From IMG/VR virus record IMGVR_UViG_2636415959_000005: a stretch of DNA of 40,716 nucleotides; one strand, 5' to 3'. The notes under the pieces are model-generated. The model saw only the letters and a program-made list of their open reading frames with translations, did no database searches and was not told the DNA's origin. Every line of letters starts with the position of its first letter. The stretch's first letter is position 1. Made by a program: the position numbers and the translations under genes. Source of the stretch: a virus (lineage: Duplodnaviria; Heunggongvirae; Uroviricota; Caudoviricetes). Shown piece after piece: positions 1,023 through 34,813 of this stretch.

Positions 1023-2195
1023 ATGCATATGATTGAAATTAACAGTTTATTATTAATAACATCCGTGATATTGATGTCGTTATTAGCTGTGGGGTTATTT
1101 GATAAAATTTCCCCAATAAATCTTGTTGAGCACGGCAGGAATAATCAAATAGATGGAATGCGGGGGTTCTTAGCAATTTTCGTGCTTATTCATCACGCAG
1201 CAATTTGGAATGGATACTTGTCATCTGGAGTATGGGAAGCACCTTCATCAAATCTGTTAGCAAATTTAGGCCAAGTTGGTGTGTCATTCTTTTTTATGAT
1301 TACTGGTTATCTGTTCTTTTCAAAGATTATCTCTGGAGATCAGGACTGGACAAGGCTTTATGTATCAAGATTACTACGATTAACCCCAATGTTCATAGTT
1401 AGCCTATGTCTCATTTTTATCATTGTAGGTTTTAAGTCTGGATGGAGAATGCAGGTATCCACAGAAGAGCTTTTTGTGTCAATAATGAAGTGGTTGCCAT
1501 TCACTGCGCTAGGTATGCCGAACATTAATGACGTAAAAGATTCATTTACTATCAATGCCGCTGTAACATGGACACTTGTATATGAATGGTTCTTTTATTT
1601 TTCTCTTCCGGTAATTTCCGCGCTCATAAAAAGAAAAGTCAGTATTTACATGGTTATGATTAGCGCAATATCGCTATTTGTTTTCATTTTATTTTTCAGT
1701 AAAATACACATAGTATCATTTCTTTTTGGGCTCCTGGCATTTTTGCTAAATAAATCAAAGATAGTCAATGGAATTGCCAAAGCAAAAGTAACACCAATCA
1801 TAATAACTGCGATAATGATTTTTGAAATGACGTATTTCAAAACAACTTACGCACCGCTACCACTGATTCTTTGTGGAATAACATTTATCATTATCGCATC
1901 AGGTTGTGATTTGTATGGAATATTAAGATTAAATATAACCAGAAAGCTAGGAGAAACTACCTACAGCGTTTACCTTCTGCATGGGATATTCCTTTATTGC
2001 CTAATGACGTGGATTATTCCTAATAATTACACTGAAAATACATTTATCATACTGGTAAGCACAACTGCATTTCTTATTACGTTCACATCATGCCTAACTT
2101 TTAAATTAATAGAGACGCCATTCATCAAATTAACAAAACAAACCACAACTTTAGTAAAAGAATTAATACCCACATTAACAAACAACAATCAATAA
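1023..2195 (+). CDS. oac: O-antigen acetyltransferase, acyltransferase-3 family integral membrane protein (serotype-conversion moron)
   Basis: 390-aa polytopic hydrophobic ORF with the N-terminal motif (…NQIDGMRGFLAIFVLIHH…) typical of this family; visibly AT-rich. Exact start (1023 or 1029) uncertain. Confidence 0.75.
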   Translation: MHMIEINSLLLITSVILMSLLAVGLFDKISPINLVEHGRNNQIDGMRGFLAIFVLIHHAAIWNGYLSSGVWEAPSSNLLANLGQVGVSFFFMITGYLFFSKIISGDQDWTRLYVSRLLRLTPMFIVSLCLIFIIVGFKSGWRMQVSTEELFVSIMKWLPFTALGMPNINDVKDSFTINAAVTWTLVYEWFFYFSLPVISALIKRKVSIYMVMISAISLFVFILFFSKIHIVSFLFGLLAFLLNKSKIVNGIAKAKVTPIIITAIMIFEMTYFKTTYAPLPLILCGITFIIIASGCDLYGILRLNITRKLGETTYSVYLLHGIFLYCLMTWIIPNNYTENTFIILVSTTAFLITFTSCLTFKLIETPFIKLTKQTTTLVKELIPTLTNNNQ

Positions 2196-26559: not shown

Positions 26560-26707
26560 GTTTCACTCCTGCTTTGGCTAGTCTGTAAACACCAACAAGG
26601 CGCTCTGCGAACGCCCTGTTATTTGCTGCGGCTACCACTAATCCCTCAGGTGAATCAGGGTGTCGAATCTCTTCTTTTTCCTGGTATTTCTTACGACGTT
26701 TTGTCAT
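26546..26707 (-). CDS. Possible small basic protein (53 aa) between cII and the O-like gene
   Basis: [53 protein letters not shown]; caggag RBS 6 nt upstream; stop overlaps the O start. Confidence 0.35.
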   Translation of the reverse strand: MTKRRKKYQEKEEIRHPDSPEGLVVAAANNRAFAERLVGVYRLAKAGVKHGRR

Positions 26708-26717
26708 AATTACTCCT

Positions 26718-26794
26718 GTGGATTGATCCAGTAATTCCCTCAGAATTGCATATCAATTTGCTTAAAATCCTCGGTGGCGGCCGGGGATTTTTTC
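26718..26794 (+). ncRNA. oop-like antisense RNA overlapping the 3' end of cII
   Basis: Plus-strand sequence resembles lambda oop; terminator stem tcctcgg…ccgggga plus tttttt at 26768..26794. Confidence 0.5.
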
Positions 26795-27036
26795 TTTGTG
26801 ATTTCATCAAGCGCATACTTAAAAGCCCTGCTAATCGGACTGATGTCTGATGCCATTCCGAAAGCACACAAGACCGAAGCAATAAACCGCCAGTCCGTTC
26901 TGCTTATCTTCGATTCATGACAGCCAATCATCTTTGCCAGACCGCGCTGGGTAAGCGTTGACAGGTTGATGAGTAAATCAGTTTCAGCGCGATCAATTTC
27001 TCGCTGTGTTGGCTTGCTGTAGCTTGCTTGTGCCAT
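26740..27036 (-). CDS. cII: Transcriptional activator CII
   Basis: 98 aa; C-terminus (…KKKSPAATEDFKQIDMQF) resembles lambda CII (…KKRPAATERSEQIQMEF); sits between cro and O. Confidence 0.75.
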   Translation of the reverse strand: MAQASYSKPTQREIDRAETDLLINLSTLTQRGLAKMIGCHESKISRTDWRFIASVLCAFGMASDISPISRAFKYALDEITKKKSPAATEDFKQIDMQF

Positions 27037-27104
27037 TTGTTAATTTTCCTATATTGATATTGAGTTATAGCGGCACACCCAATGGATTTGCCGCTGATGT
27101 TTGC

Positions 27105-27145
27105 TCACCCGGTTAGAGGTGAAAGGCCATGACTGTTAAAGAGCG
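27105..27145 (-). promoter_or_regulatory. nutR (boxA cgctctttaac plus boxB hairpin with CUAACC loop)
   Basis: Minus strand: boxA at 27145..27133, boxB tcacct-ctaacc-gggtga at 27122..27105, immediately downstream of cro. Confidence 0.6.
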
Positions 27146-27153
27146 GGTACTGC

Positions 27154-27372
27154 TTAGGCGGCTTTGTTACTGGATGGAGGGAAAACATCATCCAAAGAAC
27201 ATTGGCACCCTAACTTCCTGAGGCCTTCTACGATCATTCGGCAATCGTTAAGGCCAGGAGTACGGATATTCAGCTCATAGTTGGCGATGCGGGATTGCCC
27301 CCAACCAATTGCTGAAGCTAGTACAGCTTGCGAAACTCCGATTTTTTTTCGCTGCTGGGCAATTTTGTTCAT
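27154..27372 (-). CDS. cro: Cro-like repressor (XRE-family helix-turn-helix)
   Basis: 72 aa from MNKIAQQRKKIGVSQAVLASAIGWGQSRIANYE…; gggag RBS; divergent from cI; unlike lambda Cro. Confidence 0.8.
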   Translation of the reverse strand: MNKIAQQRKKIGVSQAVLASAIGWGQSRIANYELNIRTPGLNDCRMIVEGLRKLGCQCSLDDVFPPSSNKAA

Positions 27373-27374
27373 TG

Positions 27375-27470
27375 CGGTCTCCCTAGCATTAATCACACAC
27401 CCATTACACACAATTTGTGATTAACAGTCAACCTCAATTCGTGTACAGAGTTCAATCACGTTGCGTGTTA
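27375..27470. promoter_or_regulatory. Right operator/promoter region (OR sites, pR and pRM) between cro and cI
   Basis: Repeated half-sites ttaatcaca / tgtgattaa and caatcacg…cgtgtta in the 108-bp divergent intergenic region. Confidence 0.6.
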
Positions 27471-27480
27471 CATTTAAGGG

Positions 27481-28128
27481 ATGAAAACGATGCATGAAAT
27501 TATCGGGGAAAGGATCAAGTCCCTTAGAGAAGCTAAAGGACTTAGCCAGGCTCAATTGGCCAAGCTTTGCGGCTGGGCTGCGCCTTCACGCCTGGGGAAC
27601 TACGAGTTAGGAACAAGAAAGGTTAGCGCGGATGACGCGCTGGTTCTTGGGGCGGCACTCGGCGTATCTCCGGCAAAAATAATGTTTGGCGAGGATTCAG
27701 ACGCCGTATTTCGCCAATATGAATACCCGTTATTTTCTTCAGTGCAGGCCGGGCCATTTTCGGAGGTGGGAAGCTACACAGCCAGCGATGCAAAGGCATG
27801 GGTCCCAACGACCACAAAAGCCAGCGAAAAAGCTTTCTGGCTTGAGGTGAAGGGGCATTCAATGACGGCGCCTCAGGGGGTTCGTCCAAGTTTTCCGGAA
27901 GGCATGCTGATACTCGTTGATCCGGCTGAGCCGGTAGAGTCTGGGGATTTCTGCGTGGCTTCTGCAAATGGTGATTCAGAGGCAACGTTCAAGAAGTATG
28001 AGAAGGATGCAGGGGTTAGTTACCTGGTACCTTTAAACCCGGCATATAGAACCCTGGATTGCGACCATAGCTGCCGCATCATAGGCAAGGTAGTTAAGGC
28101 GCAGTGGCCTGAAGAGACGTTTGGCTGA
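27481..28128 (+). CDS. cI: CI repressor (novel N-terminal HTH domain, lambda-like S24 C-terminal domain)
   Basis: 215 aa; C-terminal part (…[15 protein letters not shown]…[14 protein letters not shown]…QWPEETFG) resembles lambda CI; N-terminal part does not. Alternative start at 27490. Confidence 0.9.
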
Positions 28129-28240
28129 TCGGCAAGGTGTTCTGGTCGGCGCATAGCTGATAACAATTGAGCAAGAATCTTCATCGAATTAGGGGAATTT
28201 TCACTCCCCTCAGAACATAACATAGTAAATGGATTGAATT

Positions 28241-29080
28241 ATGAAGAATGGTTTTTATGCGACTTACCGCAGCAAAAATAAAGGGAAAGATAAGTGCTCA
28301 ATAAACCTGTCTGTTTTCCTTAATTCTCTGCTGGCTGATAATCATCACCTGCAGGTTGGCTCCAATTATTTGTATATTCATAAAATCGATGGAAAAACTT
28401 TTCTCTTTACCAAAACAAATGACAAGAGTCTGGTTCAGAAGATAAATCGCTCTAAAGCTTCAGTTGAAGATATTAAGAACAGCCTCGCAGATGACGAATC
28501 ATTGGGATTCCCATCTTTTTTGTTTGTTGAAGGCGACACCATTGGTTTTGCCAGAACTGTTTTCGGGCCGACCACATCCGATCTGACAGATTTTTTAATC
28601 GGGAAAGGAATGTCATTAAGCAGTGGAGAGCGCGTTCAGATAGAGCCACTGATGAGGGGAACCACCAAAGACGATGTTATGCATATGCATTTCATCGGCC
28701 GAACAACGGTGAAGGTAGAAGCCAAGCTACCTGTATTTGGCGATATATTAAAGGTCTTAGGGGCAACAGATATTGAAGGGGAGCTTTTTGACTCATTGGA
28801 TATAGTCATTAAGCCAAAATTTAAAAGGGATATAAAAAAGGTTGCCAAGGATATTATTTCTAACCCGTCACCTCAATTTTCAGACATTAGCCTGCGGGCA
28901 AAAGATGAGGCCGGAGATATTTTAACAGAACATTATCTATCAGAAAAAGGCCATCTCTCAGCGCCTCTGAACAAGGTCACCAATGCTGAGATAGCTGAAG
29001 AGATGGCATATTGCTACGCAAGAATGAAAAGTGATATACTGGAATGTTTTAAAAGGCAGGTGGGCAAAGTTAAGGATTAA
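28241..29080 (+). CDS. rexA: RexA (Rex abortive-infection/exclusion system sensor)
   Basis: 279 aa; translation matches lambda RexA as I recall it (MKNGFYATYRSKNKGKDK…QVGKVKD). Confidence 0.9.
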   Translation: MKNGFYATYRSKNKGKDKCSINLSVFLNSLLADNHHLQVGSNYLYIHKIDGKTFLFTKTNDKSLVQKINRSKASVEDIKNSLADDESLGFPSFLFVEGDTIGFARTVFGPTTSDLTDFLIGKGMSLSSGERVQIEPLMRGTTKDDVMHMHFIGRTTVKVEAKLPVFGDILKVLGATDIEGELFDSLDIVIKPKFKRDIKKVAKDIISNPSPQFSDISLRAKDEAGDILTEHYLSEKGHLSAPLNKVTNAEIAEEMAYCYARMKSDILECFKRQVGKVKD

Positions 29081-29095
29081 TTATCAGGAGTAATT

Positions 29096-29530
29096 ATGCG
29101 GAACAGAATCATGCCTGGTGTTTACATAGTAATAATTCCTTACGTTATCGTAAGCATTTGCTATCTCCTTTTCCGCCACTACATTCCTGGTGTTTCTTTT
29201 TCAGCTCATAGAGATGGCCTTGGGGCGACATTGTCATCATATGCAGGAACCATGATTGCAATCCTGATTGCTGCCTTGACGTTTCTAATCGGAAGCAGAA
29301 CGCGCCGACTGGCCAAGATTAGAGAGTATGGGTATATGACATCGGTAGTTATTGTCTATGCCCTTAGTTTTGTTGAGCTTGGAGCTTTGTTTTTCTGCGG
29401 GTTATTGCTTCTTTCCAGCATAAGCGGCTACATGATACCCACTATCGCCATCGGCATTGCCTCTGCATCGTTCATTCATATATGCATCCTTGTTTTCCAA
29501 CTATATAATTTGACCAGAGAACAAGAATAA
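29096..29530 (+). CDS. rexB: RexB (Rex system membrane protein)
   Basis: 144 aa polytopic membrane protein; matches lambda RexB as I recall it. Confidence 0.9.
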   Translation: MRNRIMPGVYIVIIPYVIVSICYLLFRHYIPGVSFSAHRDGLGATLSSYAGTMIAILIAALTFLIGSRTRRLAKIREYGYMTSVVIVYALSFVELGALFFCGLLLLSSISGYMIPTIAIGIASASFIHICILVFQLYNLTREQE

Positions 29531-29557
29531 CCCGGCCACCGAGCCGGGTTTTTTATT
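29531..29557 (+). terminator. Rho-independent terminator after rexB
   Basis: cccggc-caccga-gccggg followed by ttttttatt directly after the rexB stop. Confidence 0.8.
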
Positions 29558-29739
29558 GCCCGCCGATCACTATCAGGACAGCACCTGCCCGCCGGTCCAA
29601 ACTATTGATTAAATTACTATAATTCTTAATACAACTCCCATATCCCGCCATCTCGCCACCACCCCCTTCGCTCGTTTTTCGAACTTTTCAGCACCCATCC
29701 TGCTGTTGCCACCGACTTAAGTAAGCAAAACCATCGCGG

Positions 29740-29830
29740 GTAAAACTATTTACACAAAAAAATCATACACATAACGTGTCACACCTTTATTTTACACATT
29801 TTGTGATTGACCATTAAATCACAATATGTG
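29740..29830 (+). promoter_or_regulatory. Left operator/promoter region (OL sites, pL)
   Basis: Repeats of operator-like half-sites (ttacacattttgtgatt, aaatcacaatatgtgact) upstream of N, resembling those in the cro–cI region. Confidence 0.5.
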
Positions 29831-29883
29831 ACTATCATTTCCATCAGCAGGACGCTGAGACGCCACAAGGAACAGATTGGCAG

Positions 29884-29923
29884 GCTCTTTAACATCGACG
29901 AACTCTCAACCTAACCGTTGAGA
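29884..29923 (+). promoter_or_regulatory. nutL (boxA gctctttaaca plus phage-21-type boxB tctcaac-CUAACC-gttgaga)
   Basis: 7-bp stem with hexaloop CUAACC at 29904..29923, preceded by boxA; matches my recollection of phage 21 boxB. Confidence 0.65.
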
Positions 29924-30033
29924 CCAGAACTTGAGTGGTTTTGGGGATGGCGCGAATTGCAGCTGCAAGACAGCGATCGAGAAGATAAGCACCTCGACGC
30001 GTCATGCGCCAAAGCCGCTTAAAGGAGACCATC

Positions 30034-30339
30034 ATGGTAACCATTGTCTGGAAAGAATCCAAAGGTACGGCAAAAAGCCGCTACAAAGCTCGCAGAGCAG
30101 AACTTATTGCCGAGCGACGCAGTAATGAAGCACTGGCGCGAAAAATTGCGCTAAAGCTCTCTGGTTGCGTCAGAGCAGATAAAGCAGCATCACTCGGAAG
30201 CCTTCGCTGCAAGAAGGCAGAAGAAGTCGAGCGTAAACAGAACCGTATTTACTACCGCAAGCCACGCAGTGAAATGGGTGTGACTTGTGTTGGTCGCCAG
30301 AAAATGAAATTAGGCAGTAAGCTACTGTATGAGGGGTGA
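30034..30339 (+). CDS. N: Antiterminator N (phage-21-type arginine-rich motif)
   Basis: 101 aa from MVTIVWKESKGTAKSRYKARRAELIAERR…; aaaggag RBS; C-terminus (…YYRKPRSEMGVTCVGRQKMKLGSK…) resembles lambda N. Confidence 0.85.
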   Translation: MVTIVWKESKGTAKSRYKARRAELIAERRSNEALARKIALKLSGCVRADKAASLGSLRCKKAEEVERKQNRIYYRKPRSEMGVTCVGRQKMKLGSKLLYEG

Positions 30340-33134: not shown

Positions 33135-33842
33135 ATGGATTTGAATAAATTCGATGAGCCATTCAGCCCTGAAGATATCGAATGGCGAATACAGCAAAGC
33201 GGTAAAACACGCGATGGAAAGGTGTGGGCTATGGTGCTGGCTTATGTCACGAACAGGGCAATCATGAAACGCCTGGACGATGTTTGCGGCAAAGCAGGAT
33301 GGCGCAATGAATACCGCGATATTCCCAACAACGGCGGCGTTGAATGCGGCATATCAATAAAGATTGATTCCGAATGGGTAACCAAATGGGATGCTGCTGA
33401 AAACACGCAGGTAGAAGCCGTCAAAGGTGGTCGTTCCGGTGCAATGAAGCGCGCTGCCGTTCAGTGGGGAATCGGTCGGTATCTGTATAACCTTGAGGAA
33501 GGTTTCGCACAAACATCTATCGATAAAAAGCAGGGGTGGCACAGGGCAAAACTGAAGGATGGAACAGGATTTTACTGGCTCCCTCCATCGCTTCCGGGAT
33601 GGGCAATCCCAGCATCAGATAACAAACCATCACCAGAAAATACCAACCAGAAATCTCCATCGGTTGACTGCGAACAAATCCTGAAAGACTTCAGCGATTA
33701 TGCGTCAACAGAAACTGACAAGAAAAAACTCATCGAGCGTTATCAGCGTGACTGGCAATTAATGGCTGGCAACGAGGAGGCGCAGGCTAAATGCGTTCAG
33801 GTAATGAACATCAGAGTTAACGAACTAAAACAGGCGGCATAA
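33135..33842 (+). CDS. Single-strand annealing protein, Rad52/Sak-like (functional analogue of lambda Bet)
   Basis: 235 aa; motif …GGRSGAMKRAAVQWGIGRYLYNL… typical of phage Rad52-family annealing proteins; gaggtg RBS. Confidence 0.65.
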   Translation: MDLNKFDEPFSPEDIEWRIQQSGKTRDGKVWAMVLAYVTNRAIMKRLDDVCGKAGWRNEYRDIPNNGGVECGISIKIDSEWVTKWDAAENTQVEAVKGGRSGAMKRAAVQWGIGRYLYNLEEGFAQTSIDKKQGWHRAKLKDGTGFYWLPPSLPGWAIPASDNKPSPENTNQKSPSVDCEQILKDFSDYASTETDKKKLIERYQRDWQLMAGNEEAQAKCVQVMNIRVNELKQAA

Positions 33843-34310
33843 ATGTATCACTTGGACGGAATTATTAAAAGATTCGAGTCCAGCTACAAAGTTAATGAAA
33901 CAACAGGTTGCTGGGAGTCTACCTATTCAAAAAACAAAGGAGGATACACAAAATTTGTAGCCTTTGGCGTAACAATGCTTTCTCATCGTGTTGCTTTTGA
34001 GCTTTATCACTCCCCCATTCCATCTGGGAAGATGGTTTGCCACAAATGCGATAACCCATGCTGCGTTAATCCTGAACATCTCTTTTTAGGTAGCGCGCAA
34101 GAAAACATGGACGACAAGATAGCAAAAGGAAGGCATCGTGGAGCCAAGAAAGGTCATGCTCATCATGGTGCAAAATTAACAGAGTGGCAGGTTATAGAAA
34201 TTAGGAAAAGACTCTCTGAAAAAGAGAGTCAGTACAAGATAGCAAAAGACATGGGTGTATCTCAATCAATTATAAGCAACATAAAAACTGGCAAGAGGTG
34301 GAGCAAATGA
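33843..34310 (+). CDS. HNH endonuclease with C-terminal DNA-binding region
   Basis: 155 aa; HNH signature [44 protein letters not shown]; overlapping start and stop with neighbours. Confidence 0.85.
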
Positions 34311-34813
34311 GTTCTCGCGGGATAAATAAGGTGATTATCCTTGGTCGGGTAGGACAAGACCCGGAAGTTCGATACTCACCATCAGGAACAGCGTTCGCTA
34401 ACCTGACAATAGCCACGTCAGAACAATGGCGAGATAAAAATACTGGCGAGCAAAAGGAATTGACTGAATGGCATCGTGTTGCTGTATCCGGGAAACTGGC
34501 TGAGGTCGTGGGGCAGTATGTGAAAAAAGGTGATCAGATTTATTTCGAGGGAATGCTGAGAACCAGAAAGTGGAAAGACCAGTCAGGGCAAGACCGTTAC
34601 ACAACCGAGGTTCATGTCGGAATTAATGGCGTGATGCAAATGCTTGGCGGCATTGGCGACAGCAAACAACAAGCAGCCAGCAGGCAATCACAGAAGCCAC
34701 AGCAGCAATCATCACCAGCACAACACAACGAACCTCCGATGGATTTTGACGACAATATACCCTTTGCACCAGTAACTCTCCCCTTCCCTCGTCACGCTAT
34801 TCACGCAATTTAA
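34307..34813 (+). CDS. ssb: Single-stranded DNA-binding protein (SSB) with C-terminal extension
   Basis: [23 protein letters not shown]…TEWHRV…[17 protein letters not shown] parallels E. coli SSB; acidic tip [11 protein letters not shown] is followed by 15 more residues. Confidence 0.9.

Follow-up and report, generated by a model that had tools for sequence, protein, structure and literature searches.

The DNA analysed here, referred to as the window, is one strand of 40,716 nucleotides (nt) from a virus of the Caudoviricetes (IMG/VR record IMGVR_UViG_2636415959_000005). Its positions 27154-29562 contain intact open reading frames (orfs) for the regulator Cro (cro), the repressor CI (cI) and the exclusion proteins RexA and RexB (rexA and rexB), followed by a terminator made of a stem-loop and a T-run. 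This interval is very probably the immunity region of a mosaic Escherichia coli prophage, in which a switch of the type found in phages VT1-Sakai and mEpX1 is combined with the rexAB cassette of phage lambda, carried in an accessory slot. The features listed below were taken from the orf listing and from direct reading of the letters, and all coordinates are window positions.

27154-27372, minus strand: cro, encoding a 72-amino-acid Cro of the HTH_3 (XRE) type, identified by orf, Pfam match and identity to VT1-Sakai
117 bp between cro and cI: divergent control region (oR)
27490-28128, plus strand: cI, encoding a 212-amino-acid repressor with an HTH_3 N-terminal domain and a Peptidase_S24 C-terminal domain
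28102-28163, plus strand: left boundary and putative crossover sequence, from a three-way alignment, BLAST coordinates and the distribution of the linker in phages
28241-29080, plus strand: rexA, encoding 279 amino acids, identified by PF15969, PADLOC and PDB 8twq
29011-29040, plus strand: promoter-like site in the 3′ end of rexA, from a promoter scan
29096-29530, plus strand: rexB, encoding 144 amino acids, identified by PF15968 and PADLOC
29529-29556, plus strand: intrinsic terminator and putative right crossover point, from the hairpin, the T-run and fold statistics
29765-29833: oL with three operators and the promoter pL, mapped from the VT1-Sakai annotation; beyond the interval reported here, within the same immunity module

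When 27154-29562 was compared by megablast with 50,697 phage records, positions 27154-28163 were 99.8% identical to VT1-Sakai (AP000400), phiSTEC801-Stx1a and mEpX1, and positions 28102-29560 were 99.5% identical to lambda (seven mismatches and one gap over 1,459 bp) and to phages of lambda immunity such as SfI; no megablast identity to lambda was found upstream of 28102. By direct BLAST against the fetched loci, VT1-Sakai matches 26700-28163 and again 29529-30225, and lambda matches 28102-29560 only. This identity profile bears out the proposal of the first-pass annotation, made from the letters alone, that lambda-like rexA, rexB and terminator sequences are joined to a non-lambda immunity specificity. 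The VT1-Sakai/mEpX1 switch here comprises cII, cro, oR, cI, oL, nutL and the 5′ part of N. The region is the product of ordinary modular exchange at a documented hotspot, and its immunity type, its rex genes and the slot that holds them are all already known.

Repressor, Cro and operators

The true start codon of cro is an ATG at 27372 that follows the Shine-Dalgarno sequence GGGAGA. The Cro protein belongs to HTH_3 (Pfam, E=9e-8) and not to PF09048, and does not have the lambda Cro fold. An alternative start for cI is the in-frame ATG at 27481, giving the 215-amino-acid protein annotated by PGAP and in the mEpX1 record. CI and Cro show no amino acid differences from those of VT1-Sakai (100% identity), the cro-cI DNA is 99.8% identical to that of mEpX1, and the whole cI gene, including the part that encodes the C-terminal domain, has 99.8-99.9% nucleotide identity to VT1-Sakai and mEpX1.

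The C-terminal domain of CI is a Peptidase_S24 domain (PF00717, E=3e-26). In a phmmer search of PDB sequences, lambda CI was the best solved relative of this domain, with a match that covers residues 73-212 only (E=7e-52), and the N-terminal domain, for which phmmer gave no alignment to the N-terminal domain of lambda CI, had controller protein C.AhdI as its top match. A forced global alignment of residues 1-70 with lambda yielded 21 identities, and global protein alignment of the C-terminal domain yielded 83 of 135 (61%). The first-pass annotation had described the N-terminal domain of CI and Cro as non-lambda and the C-terminal domain as lambda-like; at the protein level it was right on both counts. 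CI contains the self-cleavage motifs QAG (A87-G88), GHSMT (S124) and TFKK (K168/K169), which align with A111-G112, S149 and K192 of lambda CI, and with an Ala-Gly site and a Ser/Lys dyad it can be classed among the self-cleaving repressors of the LexA/CI type (Peptidase S24). RecA-stimulated self-cleavage at A87-G88 would lead to prophage induction. A tRNA-Ala(CGC) gene called by ARAGORN inside cI (27679-27761, plus strand) was rejected as a false positive; it has no Rfam match at the gathering score, and its fold z-score is +0.36.

The VT1-Sakai record (AP000400) has annotations for six 17-bp operators, divided equally between oR and oL, and for the promoters pR, pRM and pL. The operators of the window were located by mapping this annotation onto it.

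27406-27422: OR1, ACACACAATTTGTGATT, overlapping the −10 hexamer and spacer of pR
27430-27446: OR2, AACCTCAATTCGTGTAC, the weakest match, overlapping the −35 hexamer of pR
27454-27470: OR3, AATCACGTTGCGTGTTA, overlapping the putative pRM
29765-29781, 29792-29808 and 29817-29833: the three oL operators
27403-27431, minus strand: pR, with TTGACT (27431-27426), a 17-nt spacer and TGTAAT (27408-27403)
29807-29812 and 29830-29835: the TTGACC and GACTAT hexamers of pL

The position of pR coincides with the "putative major rightward promoter" of AP000400; a strict consensus promoter scan did not flag it, and it was read directly from the sequence. The twelve operator half-sites give the consensus A-A-(A/T)-C-A-C-(A/G), i.e. 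a full operator of AATCACA-N3-TGTGATT. The six operators are the six best matches to their position weight matrix (PWM) in the whole window, with OR2 barely above background, a test that is circular in that the PWM was built from these same six sites. Exact matches to each of the six 17-mers and to the 117-bp oR in its entirety occur in VT1-Sakai, mEpX1, a prophage of E. coli WI2 and the Lambdavirus PDP110P1. Lambda has operators of a different kind, 17-mers of the TATCACCGC type, with which those of the window presumably have in common the 17-bp length and an ATCAC core in each half-site.

The first-pass annotation had taken the 9-mers TTAATCACA and TGTGATTAA for half-sites of a non-lambda operator. 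They do form a perfect inverted repeat (27389-27397 and 27416-27424) that brackets the −10 and start region of pR, and the operators are indeed not those of lambda, but the two 9-mers lie 18 nt apart and are not halves of one operator. Of the two arms, the right one supplies the right half of OR1, and the left one is a consensus half-site without a partner near the start of pR. A fourth operator at 27391-27407 was considered and discarded: its second half-site, CCATTAC, is unfit, and with a PWM score below 6.8 it does not rank among the top 25 sites of the window.

By analogy with lambda and from the sequence, CI would bind the six 17-bp operators and repress pR and pL, and it presumably maintains its own synthesis from pRM as lambda CI does. 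Both its CI/Cro pair and the operators of its oR and oL place the region in the VT1-Sakai/mEpX1 immunity type; it does not belong to imm-lambda, the N-terminal domain of CI, Cro and the operators all being unlike those of lambda. The first-pass annotation had raised the question whether the type is already named; it is already annotated in VT1-Sakai (AP000400), and mEpX1 forms an immunity group of its own, distinct from that of lambda (PMC3442831). The shared CI, Cro and operators predict that this prophage has the immunity specificity of VT1-Sakai and mEpX1, and that it would be homoimmune with both of them, heteroimmune with lambda, and Rex-positive.

The rexAB cassette, its boundaries and its repressor partners

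Both rex genes are full length and match their Pfam and PADLOC families at E<=1e-60. RexA has 277 of its 279 residues in common with lambda RexA, the differences being R19C and F207S, and matches PF15969 (E=6e-97), the PADLOC RexA model (E=8e-110) and PDB 8twq (E=2e-182). RexB is 100% identical to lambda RexB in amino acid sequence (PF15968, E=9e-92). The features of the lambda RexAB exclusion system are in place: a full-length RexA, a full-length RexB encoded directly downstream of rexA after a 15-nt spacer as in lambda, and, by gene order and strand, co-orientation of the two genes downstream of the repressor with an end at the terminator. Five of the eight differences from lambda over the 1,459 bp fall in the terminator, where the window is of the Sakai type, and three fall in the genes:

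28295: rexA, R19C
28860: rexA, F207S
29218: rexB, synonymous

The rex genes look intact, as the first-pass annotation had supposed. A scan of the plus strand from the start of cI to rexB found no terminator-like sites; one weak hairpin with three G-C pairs lies inside rexB (29139-29154, plus strand). The promoter-like site within rexA (29011-29040) consists of TTGCTA, an 18-nt spacer and TATACT, with TG before the second hexamer, in DNA identical to that of lambda, and its position would correspond to that of the lambda promoter pLIT, the source of rexB-only transcripts. In a lysogen, cI, rexA and rexB would be co-transcribed from the repressor promoter to the shared terminator (29556), and the internal site could yield rexB-only transcripts. 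RexA, as a cytoplasmic DNA-binding dimer, and RexB, as a four-helix inner-membrane protein, would together bring about lambda-type exclusion of phages such as T4 rII. The layout of the region and the cassette boundaries come from the sequence itself, and the remainder of this mechanism is inferred from lambda.

On the left, the alignment shows no difference between the window, lambda, VT1-Sakai and mEpX1 from 28102 to 28159, after which the window follows lambda. This linker of 58-62 bp, also common to HK544, takes in the final 27 nt of cI, which encode QWPEETFG and the stop codon, and about 31-35 nt downstream of them. On the right, the window is lambda-like through rexB and into the terminator stem AACCCGGCC (29529-29537), which is common to lambda and VT1-Sakai, and then continues with a loop and tail of the Sakai type. 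The terminator (29529-29556) is a G+C-rich hairpin of −16 kcal/mol (z=−3.05), and AP000400 annotates the matching terminator as that of the pRM transcript. These boundaries are consistent with homologous recombination at a pair of conserved sequences, the left linker and the terminator stem; because both are common to both parents, the lambda block may be read as a cassette that was exchanged by this route.

The 62-bp left linker occurs, whole or in part, in 69 phage records, among them many Stx phages with a cI that has these same 28 nt at its end, and HK639, where only the part after the stop codon is present. The approximately 31 nt after the cI stop codon (28129-28159) are kept ahead of unrelated cargoes, namely rexAB in lambda, H0053 in VT1-Sakai and PDC-M63 in mEpX1; this element may be no more than a passive linker for recombination, or it may have a function in the transcript.

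In lambdoid prophages, the stretch from the repressor gene to N is a known hotspot where mosaicism and accessory genes are common, and in lambda it is occupied by rexAB (PMC8585504, PMC7067206, both citing Degnan et al. 2007 for the hotspot). Behind the same cI, three different cargoes were found: rexAB in the window, the single orf H0053 (183 amino acids, no family match) in VT1-Sakai, and two orfs in mEpX1 (locus L007, 4625-6033). The mEpX1 orfs encode a DUF6932 protein and a 310-amino-acid protein, with PADLOC matches to the candidate defence system PDC-M63A/B (E=2e-41 and 8e-45), and therefore the same repressor would drive different defence cargoes in different phages.

The exact RexA of the window, with C19 and S207, is found in 222 blocks of the assembly collection, on contigs of up to >1 Mb, and also in a prophage of Siccibacter colletis; it is a widespread allele and not a private lesion. 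In the assembly collection it is located behind at least five CI/Cro types other than that of the window, as follows, and its association with a non-lambda repressor is thus not unusual.

L008: CI of 236 amino acids; Cro of the lambda Cro fold
L009: CI of 210 amino acids; HTH_3 Cro
L010, L012 and L015: CI of 229 amino acids with a C-terminal domain only 22-24% identical to that of lambda; P22-Cro/YdaS-like Cro
L013: CI of 237 amino acids, 76% identical to lambda CI; Cro of the lambda Cro fold
L014: CI a truncated copy of the 229-amino-acid type; no Cro called

In the loci with other repressors, identity to the window always begins at 28078-28129 and ends at 29559-29564. Another locus of the collection, L011 (GCA_000768425.1, contig JPKI01000003.1), matches the window at 100% identity over 12.8 kb and is presumably where the window comes from. 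The cassette is at least 98.8% identical throughout, behind lambda CI and behind at least five CI/Cro pairs that are 25-54% identical to the CI of the window. Of 5,426 complete E. coli genomes, 98 contain rexAB, always with at least 99% identity; lambda cI is joined to rexA in 94 genomes, and cI of the window type is joined to rexAB in three (WI2, its sister isolate and N921). Among the phage records, rexAB at the megablast level occurs in lambda and in phages that, like lambda, match the window from 28102 onward.

Three phage records were examined as possible heterologous pairings and set aside; two of them, SfI and ev243, contain rexAB. The repressor of SfI is of the lambda type, its 714-nt cI being annotated as lambda-like; the cI of ev243 is not of the window type, because its match to the window begins at 28102 as that of lambda does; and V00639.1, a candidate precedent for rexAB with a non-lambda repressor, is plain lambda, including the 3′ end of cI. 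The organism label of the last record, "Phage 434", is misleading, since its content is the lambda rex region. A look-up of RexB identical to that of lambda returned lambda-type contexts only. A scan of species-representative genomes for RexA returned mostly lambda contamination or vector fragments in unrelated taxa, with a genuine prophage context only in S. colletis. The contaminated hosts (among L017-L049) include Shewanella, Pseudomonas, Kitasatospora, Capnocytophaga and relatives of Bacillus, and several of their contigs, at about 48.4-48.5 kb, equal the lambda genome in size; Citrobacter youngae and Desulfovibrio piger contain near-identical lambda DNA with deletions, probably remnants of lambda vectors.

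Weight of the alternatives

Several points weigh against the reading of this region as a VT1-Sakai/mEpX1 switch to which a working lambda rexAB cassette was joined by homologous exchange. Homology on the right is short, with only 9 bp of exact stem in a 32-bp terminator that matches imperfectly. The exchange may have run in either direction, with rexAB gained here or another cargo replaced elsewhere. The F207S substitution is within the dimerisation domain of RexA, next to D204 and N208, which are among the residues of the dimerisation interface (PMC11077077). Finally, two-hybrid assays reportedly show contacts of the Rex proteins with lambda CI and Cro, and RexA is reported to shift the lambda switch in favour of lytic growth (PMC11077077); the partners available here are another Cro and a CI whose N-terminal domain is divergent and whose C-terminal domain is 61% identical, and any function that depends on Rex-CI/Cro contacts may fail to carry over to this different pair.

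Two bolder readings, judged together, are doubtful. In the first, Rex would be a fully portable defence module, the contacts with CI and Cro and the switch bias would be non-specific or dispensable, and the occurrence of one cassette behind many repressors would amount to a natural experiment. In the second, the element at 28129-28159 would be a functional RNA or a recombination signal and not a passive patch of homology. Because one cassette serves many repressor types, the switch activity of Rex is probably either non-specific, as the DNA binding of RexA is, or not essential.

It is unlikely that the cassette has decayed to a passenger remnant or been repurposed, its exclusion activity or its modulation of the switch abolished by R19C, by F207S or by the loss of the cognate lambda CI and Cro. 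Relative to lambda there are two non-synonymous changes to one synonymous change, and the position of F207 near named interface residues and the reported contacts of Rex with CI and Cro could be cited in favour of decay; the RexA structure paper (PMC11077077) discusses neither F207 nor R19 individually. On the other side, both orfs are full length and RexB is identical to that of lambda; C19/S207 is a common wild allele, unchanged behind several immunity types and in Siccibacter, which argues for selective maintenance; and RexA binds DNA non-specifically, DNA binding not being strictly needed for exclusion (PMC11077077).

The first-pass annotation placed a recombination junction inside cI, where a foreign DNA-binding domain would be fused at the hinge to the C-terminal domain of lambda's own CI, in one block of lambda DNA with rexA and rexB. 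Such a fusion would be in keeping with the clear homology of the C-terminal domain to that of lambda (E=7e-52), and hybrids of this kind do exist: in cI of PDP110P1 the DNA is 95% identical to lambda from about residue 130 onward, and hundreds of E. coli genomes contain a lambda-like C-terminal half of cI, about 93% identical over nt 304-715, as the C-terminal domain of prophage repressors with other N-terminal domains, the 5′ part of the gene being different. In the window, however, codon-aligned DNA of the C-terminal domain is only 0.40-0.77 identical to lambda per 30-nt bin up to 28098, and the cI DNA remains approximately 55-60% identical to lambda until nine codons before the stop codon. 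A hinge junction is refuted by this identity profile: the DNA of the C-terminal domain is 40-77% identical to lambda (61% as protein) but 99.8-99.9% identical to VT1-Sakai and mEpX1, as is the rest of the gene. Alignment of the cI-rexA junction with lambda places the start of shared sequence at 28102; the left crossover does include the last 27 nt of cI, to which extent a junction inside cI stands, but it is not at the domain hinge. The C-terminal domain of CI is thus an old homologue of that of lambda and not lambda-derived DNA.

That lambda control or vector DNA was stitched in during assembly through the shared 58-bp linker and the terminator is scarcely credible, for while lambda contaminates many unrelated assemblies and both junctions fall in sequences common to lambda, the cassette is distinct from laboratory lambda at three positions (28295, 28860 and 29218) and in its Sakai-type terminator loop, the same RexA allele recurs in the 222 blocks on contigs of up to >1 Mb, and three chromosomes that were finished independently, that of WI2 among them, have the same cI-rexAB junction.

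The region, in which modular exchange at the known cI-N slot can be seen cleanly and with sharp boundaries, matters little beyond bookkeeping. Lysogens that have one rexAB cassette behind different repressors could be used to probe whether the effect of Rex on the switch needs lambda CI and Cro.

Prophage context and comparison with known systems

The 15-bp core of the lambda attachment site, GCTTTTTTATACTAA, occurs at 568-582 and 39372-39386, flanked by the host genes ybhB (1-477) and ybhC (39433-40716); therefore, the window contains a whole prophage of 38.8 kb at the lambda attachment site. It is a complete P22-like/lambdoid prophage and a textbook mosaic, in which a lambda-type integrase gene (38228-39298) is found alongside P22-like coat, portal, ejection and tailspike (head-binding domain) genes, a P22-type anti-RecBCD gene and a DnaB-type helicase gene.

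Three further observations concern genes outside the immunity interval. Between attL and the tailspike gene, at the usual site of O-antigen-modifying (seroconversion) accessory genes, is an Acyl_transf_3 acyltransferase gene (1023-2195, plus strand). An HNH endonuclease gene (33843-34310, plus strand) is located between the genes for a Rad52-family recombinase (33135-33842) and a single-stranded DNA-binding protein (SSB, 34298-34813); similar HNH genes adjoin recombinase or SSB genes in some related loci (L009, L011, L014). Within N (30004-30339), identity to VT1-Sakai, mEpX1 and WI2 stops at 30225-30229, and the N protein has its N-terminal two-thirds as in N of VT1-Sakai (annotated as "similar to phage phi-21 N") with another C-terminus, an intragenic mosaic junction.

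Lambda (NC_001416, 35796-37253) has the same gene order, cI-rexA and rexA-rexB spacers, internal promoter-like site and terminator stem as the window, but is different throughout on either side of the segment that runs from the last 27 nt of cI to the terminator, including the N-terminal domain of CI, the fold of Cro, N and nutL. VT1-Sakai (Sp15, AP000400), mEpX1 and phiSTEC801-Stx1a have an identical oR and cro-cI DNA that is 99.8-99.9% identical to that of the window and share the 5′ part of N and the terminator, and VT1-Sakai and mEpX1 differ from it in the cargo between cI and the terminator. The closest arrangement is in the E. coli WI2 prophage (NZ_LT838200.1) and two other complete genomes, where the order cro-cI-rexA-rexB-oL is the same at 99.6-99.7% identity. 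In WI2, PGAP labels the products "LexA family protein", "protein rexA" and "protein rexB", and the early region is P22-like; in contrast to the window, RexA has C19 but F207, the prophage is situated beside dsdC/torI and not at the lambda attachment site, and the late genes are different. PDP110P1 (OZ035751) has the cro, oR, operators and CI residues 1 to approximately 130 of the window, with 97.6% nucleotide identity, but its cI (locus L006, OZ035751.1, 3828-4472) is a true intragenic hybrid, of the Sakai type as far as residue 130 or so and with lambda DNA for the C-terminal domain thereafter, and its slot contains three other orfs and no rexAB. A more distant parallel is bstA of the Salmonella prophage BTP1, which like rexAB is an abortive-infection/defence gene directly behind the repressor gene, co-transcribed with it and followed by its own terminator, in a slot regarded as a mosaic hotspot (PMC8585504, PMC7067206), although BstA is an unrelated protein and acts by a different mechanism.

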